A stretch of DNA of 64,000 bases from an uncultured Candidatus Binatia bacterium (GTDB taxonomy: Bacteria; Desulfobacterota; Binatia; UBA9968; JAJDTQ01), in NCBI GenBank assembly GCA_965204505.1, contig CBDBFB010000004.1:235449-299448 (forward strand), read 5' to 3'. The notes below the pieces were generated by a model, which worked only from the letters and a program-made list of their open reading frames with translations, searched no databases and was not told the origin of the DNA. Numbering within the stretch: position 1 is the first letter of the stretch; each line of letters starts with the position of its first letter. Positions 5,492-56,132 of the stretch are shown in pieces. Position numbers and translations under genes: made by a program.

Positions 5492-5865
5492 CACCTGATA
5501 CCTTACTCCTCCGGCAGATCAATCCACGCTGGATACGAGAAGGAAGAGTCACGTCGCAGGCGTTTAAGCCGACCGCAAAGGACAACAAGAGACTGTCCGT
5601 GCATGACGGCGACCAAACGACAGCCGAGGAGGCGTATCGTCGCTACACCGAACAACTAGGGTTGACCTCGTCTGGCGTCATGGCCGTGACAGTCCAAGAA
5701 TGCCAGAAACAGAGTTTACCAGTGACGCCCGATCCGGAGCCGTTCCCGGAACATGTCGTAATCGATTTCGTTTCGTACTCCAACGCGCAGATTGAGGCGA
5801 AGGCGAAGCAGTTGACAAAGGCGGCTCGACTGCGGGACTGGCTTTATCAGAGGGACGACCAGTAA
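5488..5865 (+). CDS. Hypothetical protein (125 aa), translationally coupled to upstream gene
   Basis: ATG at 5488 overlaps upstream TGA (ATGA); ORF-track version starting at 5440 is an upstream extension; no recognizable motif. Confidence 0.5.
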   Translation: MTPDTLLLRQINPRWIREGRVTSQAFKPTAKDNKRLSVHDGDQTTAEEAYRRYTEQLGLTSSGVMAVTVQECQKQSLPVTPDPEPFPEHVVIDFVSYSNAQIEAKAKQLTKAARLRDWLYQRDDQ

Positions 5866-7371: not shown

Positions 7372-7400
7372 GGGGTTTCCTTTCCCTGACTGTTGGAATG

Positions 7401-7584
7401 GCGTCCTTCGACTTCGCTTCGCTGGCGCTCCGCTACGCTTAGGACGAACGGCAAGAGGCTACCACACCTTTCGTTCCGATCCCTTCGACAAGCCTGTCCT
7501 GAGCTTATCGAAGGGTCAGGACCAACGGGAAATGGCTGTCACACCCGTTCGTCCTGAGCGTAGCGAAGCGAAGTCGAAGGACGC
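7401..7584. repeat. Composite palindromic element (family B): ~50-bp inverted arms flanking core cccttcgacaagcctgtcctgagcttatcgaagggtcagg
   Basis: Arm 7401-7451 is reverse complement of 7545-7584; core hairpin recurs at 16742-16770 and 22957-22980; source of spurious PVLSLSKG / CPEPVEG peptides in six-frame ORFs. Confidence 0.75.
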
Positions 7585-12169: not shown

Positions 12170-12256
12170 GATTCCCGTAGGGCCGACCGGCCGGTTGCCC
12201 TACACGCGCTACTCTGCGGTGGAATTCCGGTAGGGGCGACCGGCGGTCGCCCCTCA
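12170..12256. repeat. Two tandem palindromic repeats of family C (taggggcgaccggcggtcgcccct-type)
   Basis: gtagggccgaccggccggttgccctac then taggggcgaccggcggtcgcccctca; same palindrome at 26-47 and twice at 49465-49531. Confidence 0.7.
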
Positions 12257-16708: not shown

Positions 16709-16741
16709 GAAGAATGCGCCCCTTGATTTCGCTTCGCGAAA

Positions 16742-16770
16742 CCTGTCCTGAGTTTGTCGAAGGGCTCAGG
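16742..16770. repeat. Family B repeat core (cctgtcctgagtttgtcgaagggctcagg)
   Basis: Copy of the 7481-7520 core; preceded by near-palindrome tttcgcttcgcgaaa. Confidence 0.7.
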
Positions 16771-20130: not shown

Positions 20131-20178
20131 GGTTGAATCCTCCTTTGATTGTGCCTGTGTTCCCCGCCCGCACCCAAC

Positions 20179-20207
20179 CTGGATTCCGGCTTTCGCCGGA
20201 ATGACGG
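20179..20207. repeat. Family A hairpin core (ctggattccggctttcgccggaatgacgg)
   Basis: Identical core to 1643-1670 and 48592-48620. Confidence 0.75.
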
Positions 20208-20257
20208 ATTCAGGAAATGGTAGGGATCTTCGTATCAGATAATGCCCTGCCTGTTCC

Positions 20258-22884: not shown

Positions 22885-22956
22885 GGCTCCGTTCAGTCCT
22901 GCCTGACGGACTTCCAAGAAATTTGTACGGGCGCCCTTCGACTTCGCTCCGCCACG

Positions 22957-22980
22957 CCTGTCCTGAGCCTGTCGAAGGGC
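22957..22980. repeat. Family B repeat core (cctgtcctgagcctgtcgaagggc)
   Basis: Preceded by gcgcccttcgacttcgctccgcc matching left arm of 7401-7451. Confidence 0.7.
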
Positions 22981-23051: not shown

Positions 23052-23785
23052 CAGAGCCACTCCACCGCCTTGAGGGCGATCGCCATGATCCGCTCCTCGG
23101 CGTCGCGGAACGACGGGTGGCGGAAACCCAGCCTGCCGGTGAGGCATTCGTCCGAGACCGCCAGGATCGCTCCCGCCCTGGCGTTCCGAACCTGGGCCAC
23201 GGTCAGAAACGCGGAGGTCACCATGTCGATGGCCGTGATCCCCTCCCGCTCCAGGCCGGCTAGTAGTTCCGGCGTCTCCCGGAACAGCGCATCGGTGGTG
23301 AATACCCGGCCGTGGTGCACCGGAACCCCGAGGCTTTCGGCCGCCCGCGCGAGCGCCTCCACCACCCGCGGGTGGGGGAGGGTGGCGAAGTCTTCCGGGA
23401 CGTAGCGCGGGCTGGCGCCGTCGCCGCGGACCGCGCCGGTGGTGATGACGATGTCGCCGAGCTTCACCGCCTCCTGAAGCGAGCCGCAGCTCCCCACCCG
23501 CACCAGGGTCTCCACTCCGCCGGCGCACAGCAGCTCCGTGGTGATGGCCGACTCTGCGGCGTAGCGCCCGCCGTTGCCCACGGTGACGCGGTGGGAGCCC
23601 AGCGAGCCCGTGTACATCTCGTGGTCCTTCGAGGCGAAAGCCTTCCGAGGCGCCTCCAGCGCGCGCCGCAGCTTCGCGGCGCGGTCCCGGGGGCCGGGAA
23701 CCAGCGCGACCCTGCCGAGACAACCGGGCTTGAAACCCAGCCGGGACAGCATCTTCTCCGCGGTGATGTGGGGCTCGCTTCTCAT
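23051..23785 (-). CDS. Nucleoside phosphorylase (PNP/UDP/MTAP family-1 fold)
   Basis: 244 aa with RVGSCGSL and GDIVITTGAVR blocks typical of PNP_UDP_1; start ATG overlaps addA-like stop (ATGA). Confidence 0.7.
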   Translation of the reverse strand: MRSEPHITAEKMLSRLGFKPGCLGRVALVPGPRDRAAKLRRALEAPRKAFASKDHEMYTGSLGSHRVTVGNGGRYAAESAITTELLCAGGVETLVRVGSCGSLQEAVKLGDIVITTGAVRGDGASPRYVPEDFATLPHPRVVEALARAAESLGVPVHHGRVFTTDALFRETPELLAGLEREGITAIDMVTSAFLTVAQVRNARAGAILAVSDECLTGRLGFRHPSFRDAEERIMAIALKAVEWL

Positions 23786-26700
23786 GGCTCCGTGCCGGCA
23801 ATCCCGGGGGGCACTTCCACGCCGCGGCCGAGCCGCAACAGCAGCAGCTTGAACCCGGCCACGTCCCGGCCGAGGGTGCGCCGCACGGCCTCGGTGTAGA
23901 TCCGCGCTTGGTGGCGGTAGTCATGCATGATTCGGTCGATGTCGCCGTCGGTCACCTGGTCGGTCTTGTAGTCGGCCACGTACAGTTGCCCGTCCCGCTC
24001 GTAGACCACGTCGATGACGCCTTCCATGATCTGCCCGTTCCAGGGCATGACGAAGTGCATCTCCCGCCCCAGGATTTGCGCGGATCGCAGCTCGTCGTAG
24101 ACGGCGGACTCGGTCAGGGTGGTCCAGATGTCCTTCAACTCCCGGGCGACGGTTTGCTGTCGCGCTGCCGGGAGGTCGGCGCCATGTCTGGCGATAGCCT
24201 GGTCGAGGTCTTCCTTGACGCGGTTGGTCTCGAAGTCCCAATGTTCCAGCACCCGGTGGGCCAGCGTGCCGAGCATCCGCGCGGCGTCGCGCTCCAGGCC
24301 GCCGCCGCGCGCTCGGTCCGTGTCGATCTCTTCCACCTCGCCGGCGGCCTTGAGGCGGGTAGGAGTGAGGAACAGAGGGGTCTGGCGGCGGGTTTTGCAG
24401 TCATCCCATCGCCGGTGCCACATCTCCTCGTACCAAGTCCAGTCACCCGCATCCTGCGCCGCTTTCCGCCGGCCGCCTTTTGCCGCGCCATCCTCCACCA
24501 CCACTTCGACTTCCATCTCACCCGTGCCGCAAGGGACAATGCCCGGCCCGGCCTGCGCGAGGCTGACGCCCGTCGCCTCATCCAGCATGGACAGCAGGCT
24601 GTCGCTCCGCGCCTTCACCTCGCCCTCGGAGGCGAAGGAAATCACCAACCGTTCACGCGGCCGGGTCATGGCCACGTACAGAAGCCGGCTGCGTTCGTAC
24701 GCCTCCCGGTCGCGACGTTTCGCATCGAGAAAGACGCCGGCGAGGCTCGATACCTCTCCGATGCGCAGGCCGGCCAATCCCGTGGCCCAGTCCCGCCGCA
24801 CCTCGACCTCCGGGGAGCGGTTGCCGCCGGTGCCGCCCAGGGCGTCGACCAGCACCACCATGGGGAACTCCAGGCCCTTGGCCCGGTGGATGCTCATGAT
24901 CCTCACGGCGTCCAGGGTCTCTTCCTCCAGCGGGCTCTCGGGCTCGTTGTCCCTTTCCAAGACCCGGCGTTCCAACTCGGCGACCACGTCCTTCAGCGTC
25001 CCGCTACCTTCGGAGCCGGTCTCCTCGGCCACGAGGCGTATCTTCTCCAGGTTGGCAACCGCCTGCTGGCCCGCCCCCGTGCTCGCCGCCAGGACGGACA
25101 GCGGCAGCTCCCGGAAGACCCGCTCCACCGCCTGTCCGGCCTCGAGGAAGCGCGCCTCGCGGTGCAGGCGATGGAGCCGCTGGTAGAGATCCAGGGTCGC
25201 CCTGGGAAGGTCCACCCAGCGGGGGTCGGCCGCCAGGCGGTAGCTGAGAAGCCTCTTCCGGCTCAACTCGTAGATCTCGACGTCGTCGTGTCCGCCCAGC
25301 GGCGAGCGCAGCACGCCCACCAGCGCCAAGCGGTCGTGGGGGTTGTCGATGGCTCGCAGCAGATTGACGGCGTCGACGACTTCCTGGGTGGCGTAGAAGT
25401 CGCGCTCGCCTTCCACCACGTAGCCGATGTCCCGCCGGCGCAGCGCGTCCAGGTAGACCTGCACGTTGGTGAGGGCGCGCAGGAGAAAGGCGACGTGGCC
25501 AGGCCGCGCCGGCACGAGGTCACCGTCCCGGTCGTGGAAGTGGACACGGCCCACGACTTCCTCGTCGAGCCAGCGGGCCAGGGATTCCGCCTCCAGCCGG
25601 CGCCCCGCGTCGGCGTTGAGCTTGTGCCCCGTGGCCGTTGCCCGGCGCAGTCGCACCGGCCCTGGCGCGTGAACGGAAGTTGCCTCCGAGGCGCTGTCGA
25701 CGCCGGGCTGGAGCGCGATGTACTCCGGTTGAAGGCCGGGCCGTTCCCGGATCAGGTTCGAGAAGACACCGTTCACCACGTCCAGGATACGGGGGTGGCT
25801 GCGGAAGTTGGCGGTCAACGGGTAGCGGGTCCCGCCCTGGGCCTCGATCACTTCCTGGATGACCTTCAGGTAGGCTTCGATGTCGGCGCCGCGGAACCCG
25901 TAGATGGACTGCTTGGGGTCTCCCACCACGAAGAGCTTGTCGGCGGCCAGTCGGATGTCGCGCCAGGTTGCCGCGAGCCGGGAGCGCTCCTCGCACAGCC
26001 ACAGCAGGATCTCGTACTGGAGCGGGTCGGTGTCCTGGAACTCGTCCACCAGGATGGCCTTGTAGCGGTCCTTCAATTCTTCGCGGATGCGCGGGTGGTC
26101 GCGCAGGAGGTCGCGCGCGCGCACGAGCAGGCCGTCGAAGGTCACCAGGCCCTTGCGGGCGAAGTCCGCGCGGCATTGCCGGGCAAAGGGCGTCACGAGG
26201 GCGCAGAGCCGGCCGGTCTCCTCGTAGTCGACCTGGACCAGCGCGCTCGCGGCCTTCAGAAGTGTGGCGGCGCGGTCGAGATCATCCCCGTTCCACCCTT
26301 TCACGCGGGACGGTTTCCATTGCAGAAGGCTCGATTCGTCGGCGTCCACCGAAACGGGTGCCGCGGGATTCGCTCGGATCGACCGTACCACCTTCCGCGC
26401 CACCGCCAGCGCCCGTTCGTTTTTCCGTTGTTCCGGGTGACGCGTGATGAGATCGGTCACGGTTTCTTCCAGCCCGCCCAGCCACTCCGCAAGGATGTCG
26501 GCCGGGTCACCGGATAACCCGGCGCGCGGAATTCCTTCCAGGTCGACGTTCTCGGCGCACAGGCCCAGCGCCAGCTCCCCGATCCGCTCAAGGGGAAAGC
26601 GCGCGAGCACGTGCTTCCACTCCTCGGTCCTCGGCCCCGCGCTGGACAGCTCGCCGTCGAGCCACAGGCCCCAGGCGGTGTCGAAGTGCCTCGTCAGAAG

Positions 26701-27171
26701 CCGTTCGTCGCCCTCGCGGAACCCCGGGTCGAGTCCGGTCTCCAGGGGGTAGAGCCGCAGCAGCGACGCGGCGAACCCGTGGATAGTGCCGATCTGGGCC
26801 TGCTCCAGGTGTCGCAGCGCCGAGTCGGCGCGGCCGCGCACGTCGTCAGGCGCGAGTCCGTAGCGTCCGCACAGGGCCTCGATCTCGTCGGCCCCGCCGT
26901 CCTGCCGCGGGGGCGCGGCCCCGTGCTCGGCGAGCACTTCCAGCCGGTCGCGCAAACGCGCCTTCATCTCGTTGGCCGCCTTGTTGGTGAAGGTCAGGGC
27001 CACGATCTCGGTCATGGCCACGGGCGCCGGCTCGCGCATCAGCAGGTTCACGCAGCGCTCCACCAGCAGGGTCGTCTTACCGGTGCCGGCCGCCGCGGTT
27101 ACCACCACGTTGCGGTCGAAGGTGGTGGAGGCCAGGCGGCGTTCGCTGTCGTCGGTAGGCGGAGGAGTCAT
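23782..27171 (-). CDS. addA: AddA/UvrD-like ATP-dependent helicase with C-terminal PD-(D/E)XK nuclease
   Basis: Walker A AAAGTGKTTL near N-terminus, UvrD motifs, C-terminal VDVVYERDGQLYVADYKTD nuclease motif; ATG 27169-27171 after GGGAGG. Confidence 0.8.
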   Translation of the reverse strand: MTPPPTDDSERRLASTTFDRNVVVTAAAGTGKTTLLVERCVNLLMREPAPVAMTEIVALTFTNKAANEMKARLRDRLEVLAEHGAAPPRQDGGADEIEALCGRYGLAPDDVRGRADSALRHLEQAQIGTIHGFAASLLRLYPLETGLDPGFREGDERLLTRHFDTAWGLWLDGELSSAGPRTEEWKHVLARFPLERIGELALGLCAENVDLEGIPRAGLSGDPADILAEWLGGLEETVTDLITRHPEQRKNERALAVARKVVRSIRANPAAPVSVDADESSLLQWKPSRVKGWNGDDLDRAATLLKAASALVQVDYEETGRLCALVTPFARQCRADFARKGLVTFDGLLVRARDLLRDHPRIREELKDRYKAILVDEFQDTDPLQYEILLWLCEERSRLAATWRDIRLAADKLFVVGDPKQSIYGFRGADIEAYLKVIQEVIEAQGGTRYPLTANFRSHPRILDVVNGVFSNLIRERPGLQPEYIALQPGVDSASEATSVHAPGPVRLRRATATGHKLNADAGRRLEAESLARWLDEEVVGRVHFHDRDGDLVPARPGHVAFLLRALTNVQVYLDALRRRDIGYVVEGERDFYATQEVVDAVNLLRAIDNPHDRLALVGVLRSPLGGHDDVEIYELSRKRLLSYRLAADPRWVDLPRATLDLYQRLHRLHREARFLEAGQAVERVFRELPLSVLAASTGAGQQAVANLEKIRLVAEETGSEGSGTLKDVVAELERRVLERDNEPESPLEEETLDAVRIMSIHRAKGLEFPMVVLVDALGGTGGNRSPEVEVRRDWATGLAGLRIGEVSSLAGVFLDAKRRDREAYERSRLLYVAMTRPRERLVISFASEGEVKARSDSLLSMLDEATGVSLAQAGPGIVPCGTGEMEVEVVVEDGAAKGGRRKAAQDAGDWTWYEEMWHRRWDDCKTRRQTPLFLTPTRLKAAGEVEEIDTDRARGGGLERDAARMLGTLAHRVLEHWDFETNRVKEDLDQAIARHGADLPAARQQTVARELKDIWTTLTESAVYDELRSAQILGREMHFVMPWNGQIMEGVIDVVYERDGQLYVADYKTDQVTDGDIDRIMHDYRHQARIYTEAVRRTLGRDVAGFKLLLLRLGRGVEVPPGIAGTEP

Positions 27172-27188
27172 GACGTCCCGGCCTCCCG

Positions 27189-27353
27189 CTAGTGTCGCGT
27201 CCCATGATTTCCTGGCATAAGTTGCGCAGGATTTTTTGTTGTCGGCAAGGCGCGATGACGAGCAGTGGCGGGTACCACGCGAGGAAGAGCAACGCAGCCG
27301 ACGGCGAAAAAGACAAGCAAATTATGCCAGGAAATCATGGGACGCGACACTAG
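27189..27353. mobile_element. MITE copy E1 (165 bp, 32-bp perfect terminal inverted repeats ctagtgtcgcgtcccatgatttcctggcataa)
   Basis: Internal 85 bp is reverse complement of the cores of copies at 31279-31443 and 36255-36419; sits between addB stop and addA start; no transposase ORF. Confidence 0.8.
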
Positions 27354-30300
27354 AGCCTCGTCCGCCGGATACTCGCCAACGCCTCCGCCGCGGGATGTGT
27401 GGCGGCGCGCGTGTTCGACGGAAAGTGATCCTTGCGGCAGATCTCCGATACCCGGCAGAAGCGGCAGTAGTCGTCGCTTGGCATTATCGGGAACTCACCG
27501 TCCCGGATGCCCCTGAGCAGGCGCGCCACCGTGTCGCGAATCTTCTCACCCTCGGACTCCCGCCACGAAGATCCCGTGAACGTATTCGCGACCAGCGGTC
27601 CTTCGTCCCAGCGGGGCGCGAGAAAGTACCAGGTAGCGTCGATGACCGCCCCGGCGGCCGCTTCCCTGCCCAATTCGTCACCGGCGGCCAGCAGCAGGTA
27701 GACGGGCAGTTGCAGTCGCCGTCCCTGCACTGCGGCGAGCACCGGGTTCCGGTCCACCGCCCCGGGTTCCTTGCCGCTCTTGTACTTGTAGTCGATGACC
27801 CGGTAGCGGTTGCCGCGCGCATGGTGGTCGATACGGTCGAGCCGGCCCTGAAGCGGGAGCCCGCGCAGGTCCTGCGGCCAGTCCGCGTCGAGCTCCGCGG
27901 TCAGGTTTTTCTCCAGCCCCACCGGGCGGAAGCCGGAGCCGGCCATTTCCTGCCGGTCCACCCGCACCGCCTCGCGCAGCATCGCGAGCATCTCCTCCTT
28001 GGCGGTTTCCCACGCCGCCGGGTAGCCCGTGGGGGCGCGTGTTTCGAAGGCGGACAACACCCCGGCGGCGGCGCCGTCGAGCCACTCGCGCCAGCCGTCC
28101 CCGAGGGCGCGGTCCAGGTCCTCGTAGAACGCCTGAAGGATTTCGTGACAGATCTGGCCCTGCTCCAGCGCCTGGACCGGCGCGGTCCACTCGGGCCGCT
28201 CCAGCCGTTCCAGTTGAAGCACGCGGCCGGCGAAGTACTGGAAGGGGCAGCGCCCGTAGGCCTCCAGCATCGTCGGCGAGATACGGCGTTCCAGGAGTTG
28301 GTCCCATGCTTCCGGCAGGGGGCCGGTGACGCCGTCGAACGGCCCCGGCACGCCGGCGGGGTCGTCGAGCGCGCGGATGGCCGCGAGGCTTCTCTCGAAG
28401 TTGTCCATGGATGCGCCGGCGATGCGCGCTTGCGGGCGCGGGTCCTCGCCGCTCAGCGCCCGCCGCACCGCCAGCTCTTCGGGCAGGAGCCACCGGGGGT
28501 CGTCAAAGGGCGGGGTGTCACGCTTGCCGAGGACGCTCTTGGGAATGGCGCGGGAGTCCGCGTCCGTGGCGGGAGCCAGTTCGCGGAGGTACCACGACGG
28601 CGCCAGCGCCCGTCCGGCCGAATCGGCCCGCGGCCACGTGCAACAGAGGCGCTCGCCGGCCGAACCCGACAGCAGGGCGAACAGCAGCTTCTCCTCGTCG
28701 TAGCCCGCCAGCTTCGAGGAGATCTTGTACCCCAGAACGGTTTCCAGCGTGCGCCGGGCACGGTCCGGCAGGAACGGGTCCTCGCGGATGGTGCGGGGAA
28801 ACACGCCTTCGTTCATGCCTACCAGGAAGAGGGCACGGAACGGGATGCCCCGAGCCGCCCCGGCATCCAACACCTGCACGCCGGGCATGGGAACACGCAC
28901 CAGCGGCACCGAGCCCCGGTCCAGGGCCTTGCGCAGGGCGGCGACGAAATCCGGCAGCGGCACCTTCCCGCCGACGGCGTCCAGGGCGGCCAAACCGTCG
29001 AAGGCATCTTCGAAGGCGCGGGCCACGTCGGCTTCGCCGTCGCCCGGGTCCGTGATGAGGAAGCGGTGGATGATCGCGCGCCAGCGGGCCGCGAGATCGG
29101 ACCAGGCGCCTTCCGGTGGCAGGGCGCTCAGAGCCGCGTGCAAGGCCTCGACGGTGTCCATCAGCGCGCCGATCTGCTCCGGCGCTACGCGGAGGCGCCG
29201 GCCTTCGTCCTCCTCGTCCACCAGGCTCAAGTCGAGTCCGGTGTCGCGGTAGCGTTCCAGGCGCCGCCACTCGCCCATGCCGCGGCCGATGCCCAGCCAC
29301 CGAGTGGCCACGTCCCACAGTTCGGGCCGGGGCTCGGCTGCGCCGCCCCGGACCTCGGCGAAGTTGAAGTGATGGGATGCCAACAGGTCGACGACGCCGG
29401 CGCGTGGATAGTCCCGGACCGGCAGGTCCAGCAGCGCCAGCACGGCCCGGACCCGCTGGAAGCGATTAAGCGGCTCCCGCGCGGGGGTGTGATAGGGGAT
29501 GCCGTGGGCGGGAAAGATCTCCCTGATCCAGGGAAGGTACGGGTCGAGGGTGCGCGCCACTACCCCCACGTGCCGGAAATCGAGACCTTCCTCCTCCGCC
29601 AGCCGTAGCGCCTGCTTGGCCACGGTCACGATCTCGTCCCGCGGACCGGCGCAGCTAAGGACCTCGCGCCGGGGCATGGGGCCGGCGCCGGTTTCCGCGT
29701 CGCCGTCCAGCAGGTCCACGACGTCGTCCGTCCCGGCAAGGCCGCGCAGGTAGCGGTCATGGAAGTCCTGGGCGAAGGACCAGTCCGGGTGTCCTTGGGC
29801 GAGCGGGTAGAAGAGGGTCACCGGGAAGCTGGCGGCAATGCTCCGGAAGAGCTCCAACTGCGTCTGGGTCAACTCGTAGAAGCCGTAGTAGCAGATGCGC
29901 TCGAATTGCCCGAGCCAGCGCGAGAGAGGCGCCTCGGCCGCCGCCTGGCCGTCGAGGTCCTGGTGGTCTCGGGCCTGCCATTCGGCGAAGCGGCGTGTCA
30001 CCTCCCGGTACAACACGAACAGATCGTACAGCGCGTCCCGGTCCCTGCCCGCGAAATGCCCTTCACGCACTGCCTCCAGCGCCGGCTCGGGATCTACCAT
30101 GGCGTCCTTGAGATCGCGCAGGCTCTGCCACAGCGCGGCGCACCCCCCGTCATTGTCCGCGATGCGCGCGAAACGCCCATGGCCGGGGAGCACGCGTTTC
30201 AGCGCCTCCTCCAGGAAGGTCTCGTCGCGGACCGAGGGTTCCGCCCCGCGCGCCTCCCGAAAGAGTTCCTTGGTGAGCTGGGAAAAGCTCAGGATGCGGA

Positions 30301-30478
30301 AGTTCAACAGGTGGAGGCCGTGTTCATGCGCCAGCAGGACCTTGACGCGCCGCCGCAGGGTCTCCGAGGGCACCACCAGCAGCAGCGGGGCGAGCGGGTC
30401 CCTCTCGCGGTGCTCCCGGATCTCCTCCGCAAGGGCGCCTTCCAGTTGGGGGTGGTAGGGACCAAGAACGATTTTCAT
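27350..30478 (-). CDS. addB: AddB-like PD-(D/E)XK nuclease/helicase subunit with C-terminal Fe-S Cys cluster
   Basis: Start MKIVLGPYHP at 30476-30478; C-terminal RVIDYKYKSGK nuclease motif and CRFCRVSEIC cluster; stop TAG lies inside MITE E1 terminus; N-terminal 240-aa extension in ORF track rejected (overlaps MBL gene on other strand). Confidence 0.75.
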   Translation of the reverse strand: MKIVLGPYHPQLEGALAEEIREHRERDPLAPLLLVVPSETLRRRVKVLLAHEHGLHLLNFRILSFSQLTKELFREARGAEPSVRDETFLEEALKRVLPGHGRFARIADNDGGCAALWQSLRDLKDAMVDPEPALEAVREGHFAGRDRDALYDLFVLYREVTRRFAEWQARDHQDLDGQAAAEAPLSRWLGQFERICYYGFYELTQTQLELFRSIAASFPVTLFYPLAQGHPDWSFAQDFHDRYLRGLAGTDDVVDLLDGDAETGAGPMPRREVLSCAGPRDEIVTVAKQALRLAEEEGLDFRHVGVVARTLDPYLPWIREIFPAHGIPYHTPAREPLNRFQRVRAVLALLDLPVRDYPRAGVVDLLASHHFNFAEVRGGAAEPRPELWDVATRWLGIGRGMGEWRRLERYRDTGLDLSLVDEEDEGRRLRVAPEQIGALMDTVEALHAALSALPPEGAWSDLAARWRAIIHRFLITDPGDGEADVARAFEDAFDGLAALDAVGGKVPLPDFVAALRKALDRGSVPLVRVPMPGVQVLDAGAARGIPFRALFLVGMNEGVFPRTIREDPFLPDRARRTLETVLGYKISSKLAGYDEEKLLFALLSGSAGERLCCTWPRADSAGRALAPSWYLRELAPATDADSRAIPKSVLGKRDTPPFDDPRWLLPEELAVRRALSGEDPRPQARIAGASMDNFERSLAAIRALDDPAGVPGPFDGVTGPLPEAWDQLLERRISPTMLEAYGRCPFQYFAGRVLQLERLERPEWTAPVQALEQGQICHEILQAFYEDLDRALGDGWREWLDGAAAGVLSAFETRAPTGYPAAWETAKEEMLAMLREAVRVDRQEMAGSGFRPVGLEKNLTAELDADWPQDLRGLPLQGRLDRIDHHARGNRYRVIDYKYKSGKEPGAVDRNPVLAAVQGRRLQLPVYLLLAAGDELGREAAAGAVIDATWYFLAPRWDEGPLVANTFTGSSWRESEGEKIRDTVARLLRGIRDGEFPIMPSDDYCRFCRVSEICRKDHFPSNTRAATHPAAEALASIRRTRL

Positions 30479-30559
30479 GGCGCAGCCGGAATCTCCGAGA
30501 AATTTGGCAGACCCGGCACGCGTTGCCAAGGTCAATCCGGCGCTGCTAATCTCCGCCCC

Positions 30560-31282
30560 GTGAGAGTCCATTTTCTCGGCTCCGGCGATGCCTTCGGCAG
30601 CGGCGGCCGCAACCAGACCGCCTATCTTCTGGAGGACCACTCGCGCCTTCATCTCCTCGACTGCGGGCCGTCCACGCTGCCGGCCTTCAGGCGCGCCGGT
30701 CTGGACCCGGCGGCGCTGGACGCCGTGATCCTGAGCCACCTCCACGGCGACCACTTCGGCGGCTTGCCCTTCTTCTTCATCCACTACCTGTATGATCGGC
30801 CCCGGAGCCGTCCGCTGGAGGTGGCGGGCCCGCCCGGCACCGAAAGGCGCGTGCGCGATCTCATGAGGCTGATGTACGGGGAGAAGGCGCTGTCCTTCGT
30901 CGCCTTCGTCGAGCTGGTGCCGGACGCCGTCACCGCCGTGGCCGGGGCCGAGGTGCTGGCCTTCCGTGTTCCGCACCAGACCGACGCCGTCTCCCTCGGA
31001 CTCAGGGTCACGGTGGCGGGACGCACGGTGCTCTTCTCCGGCGATTCGAGCTGGACGGACCAGTTCATCACCCACAGCCGGGGCGCCGACCTGTTCATCT
31101 GCGAGTGCTGCCACTACGACGCCCCGTCCCCCTCGCACATGAGCTATGTGGAGATCGCCGCGCGCCGGGAACGCCTGGAGTGCAAGCGGCTCATCCTGAC
31201 CCACATGGGCGAGGAGATGCTGGCCCGGCGCGGGTCGTTGCCGGTCGCCACCGCGGAGGACGGCCTGGTGTTGGAAGTCTAG
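30560..31282 (+). CDS. MBL-fold metallo-hydrolase
   Basis: HLHGDH motif, N-terminal VHFLGSGDAFGSGG; GTG start at 30560 (uncertain); stop TAG coincides with CTAG terminus of MITE E2. Confidence 0.6.
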   Translation: MRVHFLGSGDAFGSGGRNQTAYLLEDHSRLHLLDCGPSTLPAFRRAGLDPAALDAVILSHLHGDHFGGLPFFFIHYLYDRPRSRPLEVAGPPGTERRVRDLMRLMYGEKALSFVAFVELVPDAVTAVAGAEVLAFRVPHQTDAVSLGLRVTVAGRTVLFSGDSSWTDQFITHSRGADLFICECCHYDAPSPSHMSYVEIAARRERLECKRLILTHMGEEMLARRGSLPVATAEDGLVLEV

Positions 31283-31443
31283 TGTCCTGTCCCACGTAAT
31301 TCATTACCGATATGCTTGTCTTTCTTGTCGTCGGCTGCGTTGCTCTTCCTCGCGTGGTGCCCGCCACTGCTCGTCATCGCGCCTTACCGACCACAAGAAA
31401 TCCTGCGCATCTTGGTAAAGAATTACGTGGGACAGGACACTAG
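31279..31443. mobile_element. MITE copy E2 (165 bp, 24-bp TIR ctagtgtcctgtcccacgtaattc)
   Basis: Near-identical to copy E3; same internal core as E1. Confidence 0.85.
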
Positions 31444-31644
31444 GGCAGGCTGGGGCGCGTCCCGGAAATCAGTTGACGGCGGGCGGACGTGATTCGTGCC
31501 CTGGATCGACCACCCGTCCCTTGCGCGAAGCACGACGCGCGGTCCTGCTGCAACCGTCTCCTGATTTCAGGGACGCGCCCCAGCCTGCCCCCGCCGCAGC
31601 GCCCAAAACTTGACATCCCGCCGTGCGTCTCCTACAACCCCGCC

Positions 31645-31929
31645 ATGCCTAGAGTCACTTTCATGCCGCTGGGGCAGAGCTTCGAGGTCGAGGACGGCAC
31701 CACCATCCTGGTGGCGGCGATACGCAACGGCGTCAAGCTTCGCCACGACTGCACCGAAGCCATCTGCGGTACCGACAAGGTGAAGATCCTGGCGGGCGAG
31801 AACAACCTGAGCCCCATGGACGACAACGAGGAGCTCACGCTGTCCATGCTCGAGTCGGACGCCGCGGACCGCCTGGGATGCGTGGCCAAGGTGCTCGGTG
31901 ACGTGATCGTGGAGATTCCCGCCGAGTAG
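31645..31929 (+). CDS. Small ferredoxin-like (beta-grasp, possible 2Fe-2S) protein
   Basis: 94 aa MPRVTFMPLGQSFEVEDGTTIL... with HDCTEAICG; only three Cys so cluster type uncertain. Confidence 0.35.
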   Translation: MPRVTFMPLGQSFEVEDGTTILVAAIRNGVKLRHDCTEAICGTDKVKILAGENNLSPMDDNEELTLSMLESDAADRLGCVAKVLGDVIVEIPAE

Positions 31930-31960
31930 CCCCCATGTCGACGACAACCTGGAGGCCCAA

Positions 31961-32815
31961 ATGAGCAGAGTCAAGGAAGCTCTCGACCGCAAGGGAACCC
32001 TGGTCATGCCCGGGGTCTACGACGCCCTGAGCGCGCGCATTGCCGAGCGCGCCGGCTTCGACGTCATCTTCACCACCGGCTACGGCATCTCGGCGACGCT
32101 GTTGGGGGAGCCGGACTTCGGCATCCTGACCCAGAGCGAGATGCTGAGCACCATCTACCGCATCTGTGGGGCGGTGCCCACGCCGGTCATCGTGGACTCG
32201 GACACCGGCTACGGCAACGCAGTGAACGTGGTCCGCACCGTCACCGAGCTCAAGCGGGCGGGGGCGGCCGGCATGTTCCTGGAAGACCAGATCTGGCCCA
32301 AGCGCTGCGGCCACATGAGGGGCAAGCAGGTGGTGCGGCTGGACGAGTATCTCAAGAAGCTCAACGCCGCGGTGGGCGCGAGGGAAGACGGCGACCTCTT
32401 TATCGTGGCGCGCACCGACGCCCGCCAGGCCCTGGGCCTGGACGAGGCCATCCGGCGCGGCATCGCCTTCAAGGAGAACGGCGCCGACGCGGTGTTCATC
32501 GAGGCGCCGGAGACCCGCGAGGAGATGCGGGAGATCGCCCGCAACATCCCGGGGCCGCTGGTGGCCAACATGATCGAGCGCGGGGTCACGCCGCTGATGA
32601 CGCCGGCGGAGCTGGCGGATCTGGGTTTCGCGCTGATCGTCTGGCCCGTGGGTCCGCTCTACTCCGCGGCCATGGCCCTCAAGAACTACTACTCCAACCT
32701 CAGGGAGCAGGGCACCGGCGAGGCCCTCATGGACCGGCTGCTGCCGTTTGACGAGTTTCACCAGATCGTGGGGCTGGAGGAGAAGTACGCTCTGGACGAA
32801 AAGTACCGGACGTGA
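31961..32815 (+). CDS. Isocitrate lyase/PEP mutase superfamily enzyme (2-methylisocitrate lyase / carboxy-PEP mutase, PrpB-like)
   Basis: KRCGH catalytic motif, DSDTGYG, EDQ blocks; ATG after GGAGG. Confidence 0.8.
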   Translation: MSRVKEALDRKGTLVMPGVYDALSARIAERAGFDVIFTTGYGISATLLGEPDFGILTQSEMLSTIYRICGAVPTPVIVDSDTGYGNAVNVVRTVTELKRAGAAGMFLEDQIWPKRCGHMRGKQVVRLDEYLKKLNAAVGAREDGDLFIVARTDARQALGLDEAIRRGIAFKENGADAVFIEAPETREEMREIARNIPGPLVANMIERGVTPLMTPAELADLGFALIVWPVGPLYSAAMALKNYYSNLREQGTGEALMDRLLPFDEFHQIVGLEEKYALDEKYRT

Positions 32816-33749
32816 GGTCCTCCCTCAGCGGTAGCGGAGTCATGACCCCGTCCGGCAGGTCCAGCAGCAGCCGGCGCAACTCTCTCAGGTCGGCTTTCAG
32901 GTTCAAGCCGGCGATCTGGCCCATGAGGTCCGTCATGAGCCGGGCGTCGTCCGCGACGCCGTAACGGTGGACCTGGAAGTAGGCCTTCCCTTCGCTCACA
33001 CCCACCTTGGCGTGCTGGTAGAGCACCCGCACGGGCGTGCCTTTCGGCACCCGTGGATACAGGTAGGCGATGTCCTCGGGATACAAGCGAATGCAGCCGT
33101 GGGTCACGCGGCGGCCGATGGCCCAGGGGTTGTTGGTGCCGTGGATGCCGTAGGTGGTGTGGGACAGCCGCATCCAGTATTTGCCCAGCGGGTTGTCCGG
33201 TCCCGGCGGGACCACCTTGCGCGGCACCTCCATCTCCGCCTGGATCGATTTCGGTACGTACCAGGTGGGGTTCGTGCGCTTCTGCCCGACTCGATAGGTC
33301 CCGTCCGGCGTGTTCTGGCCCTCCCTGCCCACCCCGAGCGGGAAGGTCATCACTCTTGAATCGGGCAGGTAGTAGTAGAGCCGCATCTCGGGAATGTTGA
33401 GAACGAGTCCCTCCCTCGGGGCGTCGGGAAGAATCCACCGGGAGGGGAGGGTGACCCACGTGCCTTCGCCGGGGAGCCAGGGGTCGACGCCGGGGTTGGC
33501 CCGTTTCAACTCCCGGTAGCCGAGGTGATACAGGCGGGCGATGTCGAGGAGGGTGTCCTTGTGCTCGGCCACGTGTATCCCCGGGAGGCCGATGATGGTG
33601 GAAGCGGCGTCCGGGTCCGCGGCCTCGGTTTCCGGGGGCTCCCGATATTCGAAGACGGTAGTGGCCGGCGTCCACTCGTACGCCAACGCGGGCAGCCCCA
33701 ACGCCGCCAGCCCAACGGCCATCAACACCCCCAGAGACATTCCCTTCAT
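32727..33749 (-). CDS. L,D-transpeptidase (YkuD domain) with LysM-like domain, secreted
   Basis: Signal peptide MKGMSLGVLMAVGLAALGLPALA; HGTNNPWAIGRRVTHGCIRL catalytic His/Cys motif; 3-prime end overlaps convergent PrpB-like gene by 89 nt. Confidence 0.75.
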   Translation of the reverse strand: MKGMSLGVLMAVGLAALGLPALAYEWTPATTVFEYREPPETEAADPDAASTIIGLPGIHVAEHKDTLLDIARLYHLGYRELKRANPGVDPWLPGEGTWVTLPSRWILPDAPREGLVLNIPEMRLYYYLPDSRVMTFPLGVGREGQNTPDGTYRVGQKRTNPTWYVPKSIQAEMEVPRKVVPPGPDNPLGKYWMRLSHTTYGIHGTNNPWAIGRRVTHGCIRLYPEDIAYLYPRVPKGTPVRVLYQHAKVGVSEGKAYFQVHRYGVADDARLMTDLMGQIAGLNLKADLRELRRLLLDLPDGVMTPLPLREDLTSGTFRPERTSPPAPRSGETRQTAAAGP

Positions 33750-33901
33750 CGCACCCCCCTGCTGGGATCGTACCGGCTACGGAAACCCCGCCTCGCGCGG
33801 ACCCTGAAATGCCCGGCTCGGTTCGAGCTCCCAAGGACGGTTGAAATGTGTAGCCCCGGATTATACCATCTTTTGCGCACACCGTTTAGAAAGGACCGCA
33901 A

Positions 33902-34765
33902 ATGCCGTTCGTCGCCGCGATGGCCGCAAGCCACGCACCCAACATGCTGCTCGATCCGGGCGCCGAGTGGGAGGAGTTCATGAAGCTCCACTACCGCATG
34001 GCGCCGCAGGCGGCCGGCGGGAAGCCTTCCCTGGAGACGCAGCAGAAGCTGCGCGAGGACGCGGAGGGCGCCTTTTCCGTGCTTCGCGCCGACATGGAAG
34101 CCGCCCGGCCCGACGTCCTGATCGTGGTCGCCAACGACCAGTTCGTGAACTTCTTCTTCGACAACATACCGACCTTCTTCGTCACCCTGGCGGACGAGGT
34201 CCGCGGCCGGTTCACCCGCTACGACTTCCACTACCGGAATCACCCCGAGCTGGGGCGGGCCATCCTGGAGGCCGGCGTGGCAGCCGGGCTGGACCTGTCC
34301 TTCGGCGAGGACATCGAGCTGCAGCACACGCAGATGGTGCCGCTCCACTTTCTGCTCCCGGAGCCCGAAATCCCCATCCTGCCCATTTTCGTCAACACCT
34401 GGATCGACCCGCTGCCGACACCTGCCCGGTGCTACGCGCTGGGAGGCCTCATCCGGCAGGTGGCGGACGCCGCCGCCGAGCGGGTGGCCATCCTCGCCAC
34501 CGGCGGCCTGTCGCACTTCCCGGGCTCGCCGCGCATCGGCGAGATCGACACCAGCTTCGATGAAGGGCTACTCCGGCAGATGCGCGCCGGCGAGGGCCCC
34601 GCGTTGGCCGGCCTGACCCTGGAGGAGTTGCGGCAGTCGGGAAACTCCGAGTTCCTGAACTGGATGGTCACCATCGGCGCCGTCAGCGACACTCCGGCCT
34701 CCGCCACCTTCTACATGCCCGACCACGTCGCCACCGGGTGGGGGTTCGTGAGCTGGAAGCTCTGA
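33902..34765 (+). CDS. Class III extradiol ring-cleavage dioxygenase catalytic subunit (LigB family)
   Basis: N-terminal AASHAPNM, later HTQMVPLHFL and ATGGLSHFPG blocks typical of LigB/DODA. Confidence 0.75.
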   Translation: MPFVAAMAASHAPNMLLDPGAEWEEFMKLHYRMAPQAAGGKPSLETQQKLREDAEGAFSVLRADMEAARPDVLIVVANDQFVNFFFDNIPTFFVTLADEVRGRFTRYDFHYRNHPELGRAILEAGVAAGLDLSFGEDIELQHTQMVPLHFLLPEPEIPILPIFVNTWIDPLPTPARCYALGGLIRQVADAAAERVAILATGGLSHFPGSPRIGEIDTSFDEGLLRQMRAGEGPALAGLTLEELRQSGNSEFLNWMVTIGAVSDTPASATFYMPDHVATGWGFVSWKL

Positions 34766-34808
34766 TTCGCGGACCCGCGGGCCGGCACCAGGAACACGGG
34801 AGCATCGC

Positions 34809-35054
34809 ATGAGCCGCTACCATCTGAACCGGTTTCTCTTCGACCTCAAGATGAAGCCGGCCACCCTGGACCGGGCGCGCGTCGACCTGGACGGGGCCTT
34901 GTCGGGCTATGACCTGAGCGCGGAGGAGATCGCCGCCGTCAAGAGCGGAGATCCGCGGCAGTTGAGGCCGCTGGGCGCCCACGGCATGCTGTCGCTGTAC
35001 CTGATGCGGCTGGACTCGGAGTTCGACGACAACATCTACTGGACACAGAAGTGA
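34809..35054 (+). CDS. LigA-like small subunit of aromatic ring-opening dioxygenase
   Basis: 81 aa MSRYHLNRFLFDLKMKP... resembles LigA N-terminus; located downstream of LigB-like gene (order reversed from canonical ligAB). Confidence 0.5.
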   Translation: MSRYHLNRFLFDLKMKPATLDRARVDLDGALSGYDLSAEEIAAVKSGDPRQLRPLGAHGMLSLYLMRLDSEFDDNIYWTQK

Positions 35055-35126
35055 AGGCGGGCGTCCGCCGGCACGCCGCCCGAAGGCGGGCGCGGCGGAT
35101 GCGGTAACCTAGAAAGAGGAGCTTGG

Positions 35127-35918
35127 ATGGACCTGGGACTGGCAGGCAAGGTGGCGCTGGTGGGCGGCGCGAGTCAGGGGATGGGAAAGGCGATCGCCAA
35201 GGGTTTCGCCGCGGAGGGGGCGAAGGTGAGTATTTGCGCCCGCGGCGGCGAGGCGCTGGAACGCGCCGCGGACGAGATCCGGAAAGAGACGGGGGGCGAG
35301 GTTCTCGCCACCGTCGCGGACATGTCCAAGTACGATGATATACGGAACTTCGTCGACAAGAGCGTCGACGCCTTCGGGCGGGTCGACGTCATCGTGAACA
35401 ACGCCGGCGGACCGCCGTTCGGCGCGTTCGATGCGTTGAGCGAGGACGACTGGAGCGCGGCCTACAACCTGAGCCTCATGGGCACGGTCAGGCTGACGCG
35501 CGAGGCGGTGCCGCACATGAAGAAGGTGGGGGCGGGGCGCATCATCAACATCACCTCCTACGGCATCAAGGAGCCCATTCCCAACCTGATCCTGTCGAAC
35601 ACGTTCCGCACCGGCGTGGTGGGATGGACCAAGACGCTGTCGCGCGAGCTGGCGCCCGACAACATCCTCATCAACACGGTGATGCCCGGACGCATCGACA
35701 CCGAGCGCCATCACAACCTCAACGTGGCGCGGGCCAAGCGGCTCAACCTGCCGCTGGAGCAGGTTCAGGAACAGAGCAGGGCGGAGATCGCCCTGGGCCG
35801 TTTCGGGCAGTCCGAGGAAGTCGCCGACCTGGTCGTGTTCCTCGGCTCCGACCGCGCGAGCTACATCACGGGGACGGCGCTCCTGATCGACGGCGGGCTG
35901 GTCAGGACACTCATGTAG
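35127..35918 (+). CDS. SDR-family oxidoreductase (3-oxoacyl-ACP reductase-like)
   Basis: GGASQGMGKA glycine motif, NNAG, YxxxK (YGIKE?) region; ATG after GAGGAG. Confidence 0.85.
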   Translation: MDLGLAGKVALVGGASQGMGKAIAKGFAAEGAKVSICARGGEALERAADEIRKETGGEVLATVADMSKYDDIRNFVDKSVDAFGRVDVIVNNAGGPPFGAFDALSEDDWSAAYNLSLMGTVRLTREAVPHMKKVGAGRIINITSYGIKEPIPNLILSNTFRTGVVGWTKTLSRELAPDNILINTVMPGRIDTERHHNLNVARAKRLNLPLEQVQEQSRAEIALGRFGQSEEVADLVVFLGSDRASYITGTALLIDGGLVRTLM

Positions 35919-35928
35919 GGAGGCGATC

Positions 35929-36258
35929 ATGGTCACCTATGTCGTTCAGTGGGACCTGCCCGACCAGAAGGCGAACCTGACGATCTACAGCAACAAGGCC
36001 AAGAACGACTGGCTGCCCATGACGCTGGCGGCGCCCGGGGTCAAGGAAATCCGCAATCTCCGAAACCCGCTGGAGGTGAGCCCCCAGGTCGCCATCATGA
36101 TCGAGTTCGATACCCCGCAGGCGTGGGAGAGCTACATCGAGTCGCAGGACTACATCCGCATCATGCGCGAGCTGAGAATCCTCGGCTGCACCAACTTCAA
36201 CGCCCAGGTCTGGTTCCCGTCCCGCTACTTCCCGGAATCGCTCAAGCCGGGGAACTAG
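35929..36258 (+). CDS. Hypothetical protein (109 aa)
   Basis: ATG after GGGAGG, coupled to SDR stop; stop TAG coincides with CTAG terminus of MITE E3. Confidence 0.45.
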   Translation: MVTYVVQWDLPDQKANLTIYSNKAKNDWLPMTLAAPGVKEIRNLRNPLEVSPQVAIMIEFDTPQAWESYIESQDYIRIMRELRILGCTNFNAQVWFPSRYFPESLKPGN

Positions 36259-36419
36259 TGTCCTGTCCCAGGTAATTCTATACCGATATGCTTGTCTTTC
36301 TTGTCGTCGGCTGCGTTGCTCTTCCTCGCGTGGTGCCCGCCACTGCTCGTCATCGCGCCTTGCCGACCACAAGAAATCCGGCGCATCTCGGTAAAGAATT
36401 ACCTGGGACAGGACACTAG
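36255..36419. mobile_element. MITE copy E3 (165 bp)
   Basis: ~95% identical to E2 including 24-bp TIRs. Confidence 0.85.
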
Positions 36420-36447
36420 CCTGTACCCGTTTCCCATTGCTCCCGAC

Positions 36448-37032
36448 GTGGATGTCTGCGCAAACAGATTCGATATTCTCGGGACCCGGGCGCCGAAGAC
36501 CGTCGCCGGCGACGACTTCCGGCCCGCGGCGGTTCTGGCTCCCATTCAGGAGCGCCGCGACGGAGACCACCTCATCCTGACGTTGCGGGCGGACAACCTG
36601 AGTTCCCACAGCGGTCAGGTGGCGTTTCCCGGCGGCAGGGTCGACCCGGACGACGACGGCCCGCTGGCCACGGCGTTGCGGGAGACGGAGGAAGAGATCG
36701 GCGTCGATCCCGGCCACGTGCGCGTCCTGGGCCAGCTCGACCAGGTGTTCGCGGGCTACAACTTCCTGGTGACCCCTTTCGTGGGGCTGATTCCCTACCC
36801 GTACGAGTTTCGTCCCGACCCGCGGGAGACGGCCGAGGTGTTCTCCGTGCCGGTGGCCGCGCTGTTGCGCCAGGATGCGCTCACGCTCGACTCCCGCCTG
36901 TCGCAGAGGTCGGAACCCATCTACCACTTTCAATATCGGGAGTGGGACATCTGGGGGGCCACGGCGCGGATGGTCAAGCAGTTGCTCGAGCTCGTGTACG
37001 GCTACGAGGCGAAAGCGGCAAGGCCGTCGTGA
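36448..37032 (+). CDS. NUDIX hydrolase, CoA pyrophosphatase (NudL)-like
   Basis: Nudix box GGRVDPDDDGPLATALRETEEEIGV; GTG at 36448 is first start after MITE E3 (ORF-track start at 36292 lies inside the MITE and is rejected); start uncertain. Confidence 0.6.
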   Translation: MDVCANRFDILGTRAPKTVAGDDFRPAAVLAPIQERRDGDHLILTLRADNLSSHSGQVAFPGGRVDPDDDGPLATALRETEEEIGVDPGHVRVLGQLDQVFAGYNFLVTPFVGLIPYPYEFRPDPRETAEVFSVPVAALLRQDALTLDSRLSQRSEPIYHFQYREWDIWGATARMVKQLLELVYGYEAKAARPS

Positions 37033-48485: not shown

Positions 48486-48591
48486 GTCGCGTCTCCTTTC
48501 CGGGCCATGCCGCGGTGTCCGGTGTACGGGTGGTCCGTGGTTCCTTGTAGCAGTACGTCTACATGCGGCCAAGGTTTGGATGAGTCCTGGA

Positions 48592-48690
48592 TTCCGGCTT
48601 TCGCCGGAATGACGATACGGGATGTCGGAGCCATGTCCATAACCACGGAGAGTTTTGACACAGGCTGTTTCGCGGGAATTTCGCGGGAAT
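48592..48690. repeat. Family A ~100-bp arm, single copy
   Basis: ~85% identical to reverse complement of 1503-1601. Confidence 0.75.
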
Positions 48691-49469: not shown

Positions 49470-49531
49470 GGGCGACCGGCGGTCGCCCATGCGGAGGCGC
49501 CCACAAGGGGGGCGACCGCCGGTCGCCCCTA
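49465..49531. repeat. Two family C palindromes in tandem
   Basis: gtaggggcgaccggcggtcgccca and ggggggcgaccgccggtcgcccctac. Confidence 0.7.
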
Positions 49532-55652: not shown

Positions 55653-56129
55653 TCACGACCGAGAGCGTGCTGCTCTCCGGACGTGTCGGTTGGGGGTCAA
55701 CGTGGGGTTCTGACCTGGATGTGTCCCTCCACCATTCCACTCACCGTGTGCGAGCCAGTCTTCGAAATAGAAGAGCCAAGTGTAGCTCCACGGCACGATG
55801 GTCTGGTCTATCCGTTTCGTGGGTGCCCATTGGCCAGTACCTGGTGTATAGAGGCACAGTCGTGTCGGTTTTTGGTAAACATGCGGCAGTTTACGCCCGT
55901 CCGCCAGGAGTTCAAGATTCGGTTCTTCGACGAAGACCTCGGGGCTCATTCCAGCACGGTATTCAATGCGCAACCGATAGCGCCGAGAGAGTACGGTCGG
56001 GCGTATGTAGAAATGCCAAACGAGTCGACTAGCAACAATTCGCCCGACACCTTGGCAATTCGGATTCCCCTTCAGCGACAAGTGCTGCTGAGGTAAGGTA
56101 AGAGCCTTCGTCCCGCGCTGTCCGATCAA
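55653..56129 (-). CDS. Putative E2 (ubiquitin-conjugating-like) protein of a type II-short CBASS
   Basis: 158 aa; HVY...TRLCLYTPGTGQW resembles E2 HPN-Cys active-site region; TTG start 3 nt after nucleotidyltransferase stop; weak assignment. Confidence 0.35.
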   Translation of the reverse strand: MIGQRGTKALTLPQQHLSLKGNPNCQGVGRIVASRLVWHFYIRPTVLSRRYRLRIEYRAGMSPEVFVEEPNLELLADGRKLPHVYQKPTRLCLYTPGTGQWAPTKRIDQTIVPWSYTWLFYFEDWLAHGEWNGGGTHPGQNPTLTPNRHVRRAARSRS

Positions 56130-56132
56130 AGG

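Follow-up and report, generated by a model that had tools for sequence, protein, structure and literature searches.

CTAG-flanked MITEs at stop codons in a Candidatus Binatia genome: probable IS630-type elements positioned by target availability

In the present study, we analyzed a 64-kb stretch of DNA from an uncultured Candidatus Binatia bacterium (hereafter the window). Three copies of one MITE were found in it, each lying against the stop codon of a protein-coding gene. The MITE copies, the neighboring genes and an unoccupied target site are listed below; the boundaries of each element proper follow the TA-duplication model developed further on.

23782..27171, minus strand: addA-like helicase-nuclease gene of the addB-addA operon, lying directly downstream of MITE copy 1; Pfam UvrD-helicase, UvrD_C and PDDEXK_1
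27168..27188, minus strand: relic of the ancestral addB tail, CGG GAG GCC GGG ACG TCA TGA, in frame, reading REAGTS*
27189..27353, minus strand: MITE copy 1, 165 nt including the CTAG at both ends; subfamily termini GTGTCGCGTCCCATGATTTCC; putative element proper 27192-27350 (159 nt), with TA duplications at 27190-27191 and 27351-27352 within CTAG 27189-27192 and 27350-27353
27350..30478, minus strand: addB-like gene, 5' end approximate (ca. 30480); TAG stop 27350-27352 at the MITE junction; Pfam ADDB_N and PDDEXK_1
30560..31282, plus strand: MBL-fold hydrolase gene; TAG stop 31280-31282 at the MITE junction; Pfam Lactamase_B_2
31279..31443, plus strand: MITE copy 2, 165 nt including both CTAGs; subfamily termini GTGTCCTGTCCCACGTAATTC; putative element proper 31282-31440, with TA at 31280-31281 and 31441-31442
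35109..35112: intergenic CTAG target without an insertion, shortly before the ribosome-binding site of an SDR gene; the orthologous site in L007 has a MITE
35929..36258, plus strand: conserved 109-aa hypothetical gene; TAG stop 36256-36258 at the MITE junction
36255..36419, plus strand: MITE copy 3, 165 nt including both CTAGs; same subfamily as copy 2; putative element proper 36258-36416, with TA at 36256-36257 and 36417-36418

The initial annotation had placed the stops of the addB-like gene, the MBL hydrolase gene and the 109-aa gene within the CTAG at a MITE end, and we verified all three positions as well as the reality of the genes. The 109-aa protein was identical on six other metagenome contigs, and 20 homologues of the MBL hydrolase all ended at the same alignment column. 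The MITE itself was non-coding, with no ORF, and consisted of two arms of 37 nt that were 92-97% complementary; its terminal inverted repeats were short and its copies many. Copies 2 and 3 were 96% identical to each other, and copy 1 was inverted relative to both. Copy 1 had its outermost 16 nt and a central stretch of ~90 nt in common with copies 2/3. The subterminal ~20 nt of both arms differed between them, and the changes were compensatory. RNA folding predicted a single hairpin for copy 1 (-88.7 kcal/mol, z=-12.9) and for copy 2 (-85.7 kcal/mol, z=-13.0). No Rfam match was obtained for the whole window at gathering thresholds or for copy 1 at E<=10, and a tblastn search detected no transposase gene in the 64-kb window. 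CTAG had been described as rare in high-GC DNA, which agreed with our count of 52 sites in the window against ~96 expected; six of the 52 were MITE ends.

Several other features were recorded in the window. A 148-nt palindromic element unrelated to the MITE (31443-31590; arms GGGCAGGCTGGGGCGCGTCCCGGAAATCAG..., 37 nt, 92% complementary) abutted the right end of copy 2 and took the place of the small GGGCGGGTTTCAAACCCGCCC hairpin that follows the MBL stop in relatives; only two weak matches to it were found in 133 loci. A CTAG-dense, low-GC island (~54.5-59.5 kb, GC 0.55-0.59) carried a CBASS-like defence pair (55653-58363 region), namely an SMODS/DncV-like nucleotidyltransferase (56133-57332, minus strand) and a patatin phospholipase (57329-58363, minus strand), with an M78 peptidase (IrrE-like) ORF beside them at 58841-59431. 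A second low-GC patch (4364-5865, GC 0.56), which contained eight CTAGs and ORFs of 375 and 141 aa without a Pfam match, is probably foreign DNA. In addition, an inverted-repeat family around ATTCCGGCGAAAGCCGGAATCCAGG occurred at 1507-1691, 20157-20226 and 48585-48679 and resembled the Neisseria RS/dRS3-like motif ATTCCC..GGGAAT.

The GTDB species representatives were scanned with an exact 20-mer of the MITE core, and the scan returned at least 120 loci (L010-L129). The matches listed all came from 14 MAG assemblies; Candidatus Binatia or an equivalent lineage was the label of nearly all of these, and several were from sponges. We analyzed at least 116 non-redundant full copies, comprising the three of the window, one on a related metagenome contig (L007) and at least 112 from the 14 MAG assemblies. 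Among the matches listed, the modal length between the CTAGs was 157 nt, with an element body of 159 nt, and longer classes of 178, 181 and 216 nt carried nested REP-like insertions. CTAG was present on both sides in 79 of the 116 copies among the matches listed, and most of the others were one base off. None of these 116 copies was located inside a called gene, according to home-made gene calls on the matches listed. Tandem MITE-MITE and IS-MITE pairs had one CTAG in common.

Two kinds of nested repeats were observed in the longer copies. The REP-like palindrome GGGGCGACCGCCGGTCGCCCC, which occurred in the window at 9-47, 12216-12254 and 49492-49530, was nested in the MITE of L007 (14412-14440) and in many 178/181-nt copies at the same core point in other genomes; this core point appears to be an insertion hot spot within the MITE. 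The repeat family ...CCTGAGCGTAGCGAAGCGAAGTCGAAGGGC..., found in the window at 7382-7579, 16716-16765 and 22912-22980, was inserted in the left half of the 216-nt MITE copies of other Binatia genomes (e.g., L102, L109 and L122).

The flanks were then compared base by base. Among the matches listed, the base next to the element was an inner G at 110 of 112 left ends and an inner C at 112 of 112 right ends (222 of 224 ends), whereas the outer bases (C in 100/112, G in 106/112) were variable in 18 of 224. The flank pairs TTAG/CTAG, GTAG/CTAG and CTAG/CTAT were observed seven times, twice and twice, respectively, and TTAG/TTAG and GTAG/GTAG were never observed among the matches listed. The invariant inner G/C and the variable outer bases suggested an element proper of GTGT...ACAC (159 nt), a duplication of TA and a preferred target of C-TA-G. 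Insertion at TA within CTAG, with duplication of the TA, is thus inferred from the pattern of the flanks together with the empty alleles described below. It has been reported that IS630-family elements insert at TA and duplicate it, as ISY100 does (PMC2170065), and the same paper cites Tenzen & Ohtsubo (1991) for a preference of IS630 itself for a TA that lies in CTAG. The suggestion of the initial annotation that the element targets CTAG was borne out by the 79 of 116 copies with CTAG on both sides among the matches listed and by the single CTAG of the empty sites. Inverted-repeat-symmetric flanks, CTGG...CCAG, were present in three unrelated copies among the matches listed (L107, L036 and L059), a symmetry that plain TA duplication followed by independent mutation would not predict.

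Empty sites were available in related genomes. The site of copy 3 was unoccupied in L001, L003, L006 and L007, where a single CTAG served as the existing stop of the 109-aa gene. In L001, L003 and L006, whose flanks were 98% identical to the window, the gene ended ...GGGGAA CTAG CCCGTA... with no element, and a Nudix gene followed 28 nt later. The comparison thus showed that the stop of the 109-aa gene was older than the insertion of copy 3, and that one CTAG had become two. L007 and L009, which were syntenic with the window (MBL genes 92% and 91% identical), were without all three of its copies, and their MBL genes read CTG TAG at the same residue with no MITE. L007 had a MITE of its own between an 81-aa gene and the SDR gene, with flanks TTAG...CTAG, where the window has the unoccupied CTAG at 35109-35112; this insertion lay just upstream of the ribosome-binding site and not at a stop. 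Presence/absence polymorphism between close strains, with flanks 98% identical, shows recent mobility only.

Other empty alleles read CCAG, CTAA and TCAG. In one pair with 95% identical flanks, the filled allele read CACC CTAG[MITE]CTAG CTGC (L092, 5729-5894) and the empty allele read CACC GTGA CTGC (L077, ~5610), so that three of the four target bases differed and the empty allele had no CTAG. This pair and the addB site, where relatives have ACGG in place of the window's TAGC, count against the CTAG-target reading; local divergence, an excision scar, target-site instability or a non-canonical event could lie behind them. Taken with the three copies with CTGG...CCAG flanks, the two sites hint at elevated change exactly at the target sites, for which excision scars, hairpin-templated repair or CTAG instability might account, seven independent site comparisons being too small a number to choose among these causes.

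The stop of the 109-aa gene was affected repeatedly. At the orthologous stop, L033 (OY729432) carried a MITE of another subfamily in the opposite orientation, which is an independent insertion at the same target. Two strains (L002, 2706-3880; L005, 1249-1556) carried a lower-GC gene for a 325-aa Sel1-repeat protein, and their sequence diverged from the window directly past the CTAG that ends the 109-aa gene. Together with copy 3 and the L033 MITE, this makes the junction a recurrent breakpoint. At the orthologous stop of L009 (10728-10745), the sequence read CC TAG TGTCGCG TGG. No element was present there, yet the heptamer that follows the stop is that of the MITE terminus (TGTCGCG); it may be either a remnant or a coincidence.

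Autonomous partners were sought as long ORFs running through the right terminus of an element into the flanking TAG, and two were found, both in related Binatia genomes. A CTAG-bounded element of 1.15 kb was found in L114 (6520-7666), with ends TGTACTGTCCCAC (TGTACTGTCCCACAAATA) and TGTCGCGTCCCGC (TGTCGCGTCCCGCAAATA), and it encoded a 365-aa protein. This protein scored 254.8 bits on NF033545 (cut-off 100) and contained Pfam DDE_3 and HTH_23/29/32 domains. Its reading frame passed the right inverted repeat and ended in a TAG composed of the duplicated TA and a host G (L114, 7646-7670), which indicated that the target choice of the element also supplies the transposase's own stop codon. A second IS, 43% identical to that of L114, was found in L110 (5167-6348); its ends, TGTGGTGTCTCACAAATA, were those of the commonest MITE subfamily, and it adjoined a MITE through a common CTAG. 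Only 11-13 terminal bases of the window's two subfamilies matched the L114 IS, and no exact cognate transposase of these two subfamilies was found among the elements examined. In a search for paired solo termini 0.8-3 kb apart, a candidate at L087 569-1609 proved to be a false positive, a chance match inside a histidine-kinase gene.

These results are very probably explained by MITEs of the IS630/Tc1-mariner type that target CTAG, with the position at stop codons being a by-product of target availability. The repeats would be non-autonomous members of a large family spread across Candidatus Binatia genomes, mobilized by an IS630-family DDE transposase that is encoded elsewhere and would recognize the ~18-nt termini GTGTSSTGTCYCR.... 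The element would enter a TA dinucleotide, with TA in 5'-CTAG-3' strongly preferred, and the TA would be duplicated; since the element begins with G and ends with C, each insertion would be bracketed as CTAG...CTAG. In these genomes of 65-70% GC, CTAG is under-represented and almost absent from reading frames, and insertions inside genes would be lost as well, so that the usable targets would be intergenic CTAGs and the many C-TAG stops. At a stop, the host TA would stay with the gene, the element would give the G, and the host's own G would go to the far end.

The claim that every MITE copy abuts a stop held for the three copies of the window but not for the family, in which the flanking TAG was the stop of a called gene in 39 of 116 non-redundant copies (34%) among the matches listed, the stop and intergenic classes being approximate because they came from a home-made GC3-based gene caller checked on the window. 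The unoccupied CTAGs were classified in the same way. Over all loci listed, 67 were stops, 183 were intergenic and 47 lay in genes; the stop share of the non-genic sites was 27%, compared with 34% for the MITEs (OR 1.38, p=0.22). When only sites with GC >=62% around them were kept, which leaves out the low-GC islands that the gene caller cannot read, the corresponding counts were 47, 69 and 44, with a stop share of 40% against 38% for the MITEs (OR 0.91, p=0.77). Tested three ways, no enrichment of stop codons over CTAG availability was found among the matches listed. Given a chance of 27-40% per CTAG site, three of three copies at stops in the window corresponds to p ~0.02-0.06, which is not compelling. 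Stop usage over all loci listed was TAG 301, TGA 376 and TAA 93 (TAG ~39%), and 113 of the 301 TAG stops were CTAG among the matches listed; in the window, 22 of 53 called genes had a TAG stop. The unusually frequent use of TAG as a stop is part of why CTAG sites coincide so often with stops, and with no enrichment and frequent CTAG stops, the pattern of the window is as expected of a CTAG-seeking element.

Under the TA-insertion reading, the mRNA of a gene with a MITE at its stop would gain a near-perfect hairpin of 159 nt right after the stop codon. It could be asked whether the post-stop position is itself selected, with the element acting as an RNA hairpin in a 3-prime UTR or between cistrons (an RNase III substrate, mRNA stabilizer or attenuator) in the manner of Correia/nemis and ERIC, for which effects on transcripts are documented (PMC10969869). 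The whole element is predicted to form one hairpin, with an energy near -86 to -89 kcal/mol and z near -13, the arm changes between subfamilies are compensatory and the central core is well conserved, all of which would suit an RNA role. However, the conservation of the core is partly an artefact of ascertainment with an exact core 20-mer, and the complementary arms are explained by transposase-binding inverted repeats. No terminator-like T-tract, promoter consensus or Rfam match was observed, and a promoter/terminator consensus scan of 27000-36600 gave no hit inside the MITEs. Stop-adjacent sites were not enriched over CTAG availability, and the orientation relative to the gene was mixed (13 vs 26 among the matches listed); together, these two results argue against a transcript effect as the reason for the positions. 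We therefore consider selection for such a role unlikely, and the hairpin may possibly act on transcripts in the way of Correia or ERIC elements.

The initial annotation had also offered the alternative that insertion donates a stop codon and remodels 3-prime ends. As a general rule this was refuted, since the stops of copies 2 and 3 were older than the insertions and the original codon, reconstructed under the TA model for the 39 stop-abutting copies among the matches listed, was TAG in 36 and TAA in three, and TAY in none. As a tyrosine codon was never implied, the stops would not have been made from sense codons. The far flank of all three window copies keeps the host G, which indicates that the pre-insertion sequence was already xTAG. 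On the other side, the TA model makes the G of the junction stop element-derived, and three TAA stops elsewhere have by this route become TAG among the matches listed. The creation or displacement of stop codons by insertion is thus quite unlikely, and the evidence that favors it most comes from addB.

In L007, L009, L130, L131 and L133, the addB stop is a TGA either overlapping the ATG of addA or located a few bases ahead of it; in L007 and L009, which are syntenic with the window here, the overlap of addB and addA is 4 nt. The window's addB is shorter by six codons, its stop being the CTC TAG in front of the MITE. Beyond the MITE lies the in-frame relic REAGTS*, homologous to the tails of relatives (RQTGTS* in L009, GETGTS* in L130 and L133), whose TGA overlaps the start codon of addA as ATGA and which the MITE separates from addB. 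L130 and L133 read xTC ACG GGG where the window reads CTC TAG CGG, that is, ACGG in place of TAGC. The TAG of addB is clearly a young nonsense change and evolutionarily derived. Since the host G is still present in the far flank, the canonical mechanism implies that this TAG was present when the element arrived, and it is conceivable that the insertion was linked to the loss of the last six codons of addB. Whatever the order of events, the addB-MITE-addA operon has lost its ATGA overlap. Relatives were sought in several ways. A homology search with the AddB C-terminus gave only three short matches, including P0121/L130, and a protein pattern of the AddA N-terminus found no relatives in JGI metagenomes. 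A follow-up with a DNA pattern gave three loci, of which L131 and L133 could be read at the junction and had no MITE. Among the relatives found, none carried an empty allele close enough to the window at addB.

An IS5-family origin with duplication of a 4-bp YTAR target (CTAG), as put forward in the initial annotation, would also produce CTAG at both ends and one CTAG in the empty sites; since CTAG is a palindrome, CTAG flanks alone cannot separate a 4-bp from a TA duplication. The termini of the MITE begin with GTGT, unlike those of IS5, whose typical terminal bases are GG/GA. There is a precedent in MITEPsy1, an IS5-related element of Pseudomonas syringae that duplicates CTAG or YTAA (PMC3189936), but the variant flanks in the present family were not direct repeats, with 13 outer-only variants (12 plain and one inverted-repeat-symmetric) against one direct-repeat variant in 112 copies among the matches listed. 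In addition, the bases adjoining TGT...ACA were invariant, as expected of bases owned by the element, and the only full-length elements with these termini encoded IS630-family transposases among the matches listed. The IS5 assignment was thus not borne out, with IS630-family partners (NF033545, 254.8 bits) and a duplication that reads as TA, and we consider it very unlikely. An IS481-family origin, suggested by TGT...ACA termini directly after CTAG and by an L114 transposase that likewise ends in the flanking TAG, as in ISLxc2 and ISRe46/TnRErm46 with their TGT ends, NCTAGN duplication and repeat TAG serving as the stop of the transposase and of parB (PMC2516522, PMC6794481), is scarcely credible and was rejected for the partners found here, because no 6-bp duplication was present, the bases outside CTAG being unrelated on the two sides, and because the partner transposase reached 64.7 bits with the IS481 model NF033577 (cut-off 224) but 254.8 bits with the IS630 model.

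The preferred IS630-type reading agrees with known systems in several respects. Like IS630 of Shigella sonnei and IS630-family MITEs, the present elements combine TA duplication and a strong preference for TA in CTAG with terminal inverted repeats that are short; their partner element, ~1.15 kb long, has one ORF, which encodes a DDE transposase of ~350 aa with HTH domains, and the non-autonomous derivatives have only the termini in common with it. They differ from IS630 in occurring in a host lineage that is new for this type (Candidatus Binatia, with several of the genomes from sponge metagenomes), in new terminal sequences and in having several MITE subfamilies with one core and different subterminal arms matched to different IS copies. 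IS481, ISLxc2 and ISRe46/TnRErm46 have in common with the present family the CTAG target, the TGT...ACA ends and the use of the duplicated-target TAG as a transposase or host stop (parB in TnRErm46), so that a CTAG-target TAG doubling as host and transposase stop was already known in the IS481 family (PMC6794481); theirs is a six-base NCTAGN duplication with another transposase family, whereas the present family duplicates TA and has an IS630-family transposase. Correia/nemis of Neisseria, which are often co-transcribed with neighboring genes, are likewise ~100-160 bp long, duplicate TA and form a long hairpin, and part of their recurring flanking motif is element-borne. Promoters, an IHF site and processing by RNase III have been documented for Correia elements, which have no identified transposase, whereas here a strong hairpin is predicted and an autonomous partner can be identified. 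MITEPsy1 is also a small MITE that inserts at CTAG or YTAA, but it has a 4-bp duplication, GGAAGG termini and an IS5-family partner, and the flank pattern here excludes the 4-bp mode.

Collectively, these elements appear to form an abundant MITE family of the IS630 type that had not been described before and whose autonomous partners can be identified; its hosts, the Binatia, are an uncultured phylum that includes sponge symbionts. For annotation, it is advisable to mask these MITEs and to avoid running ORFs through them. The family also illustrates that a pattern of a MITE on every stop codon can come purely from the supply of target sites when selection in a GC-rich genome acts against CTAG. 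It offers a testable transposase/MITE pair and strain-level presence/absence markers. The addB-MITE-addA arrangement is the one place with a plausible physiological effect, namely lost translational coupling in a recombination-repair operon. A more speculative reading, to which we give little credence, is that the family is more than passive junk. A single conserved core of ~90 nt would have acquired, by modular terminus swapping, various subterminal arms fitting different IS630 transposases, and insertion and excision may leave clusters of mutations at CTAG (GTGA in L077, ACGG versus TAGC at addB) that could give rise to premature stops and break the coupling within operons, addB-addA among them. 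If terminus swapping were true, one MITE could parasitize several transposases, and if the core-swap and mutation-cluster reading held as a whole, recurrent hits at orthologous stops would make the family a driver of 3-prime-end and operon evolution in Binatia.
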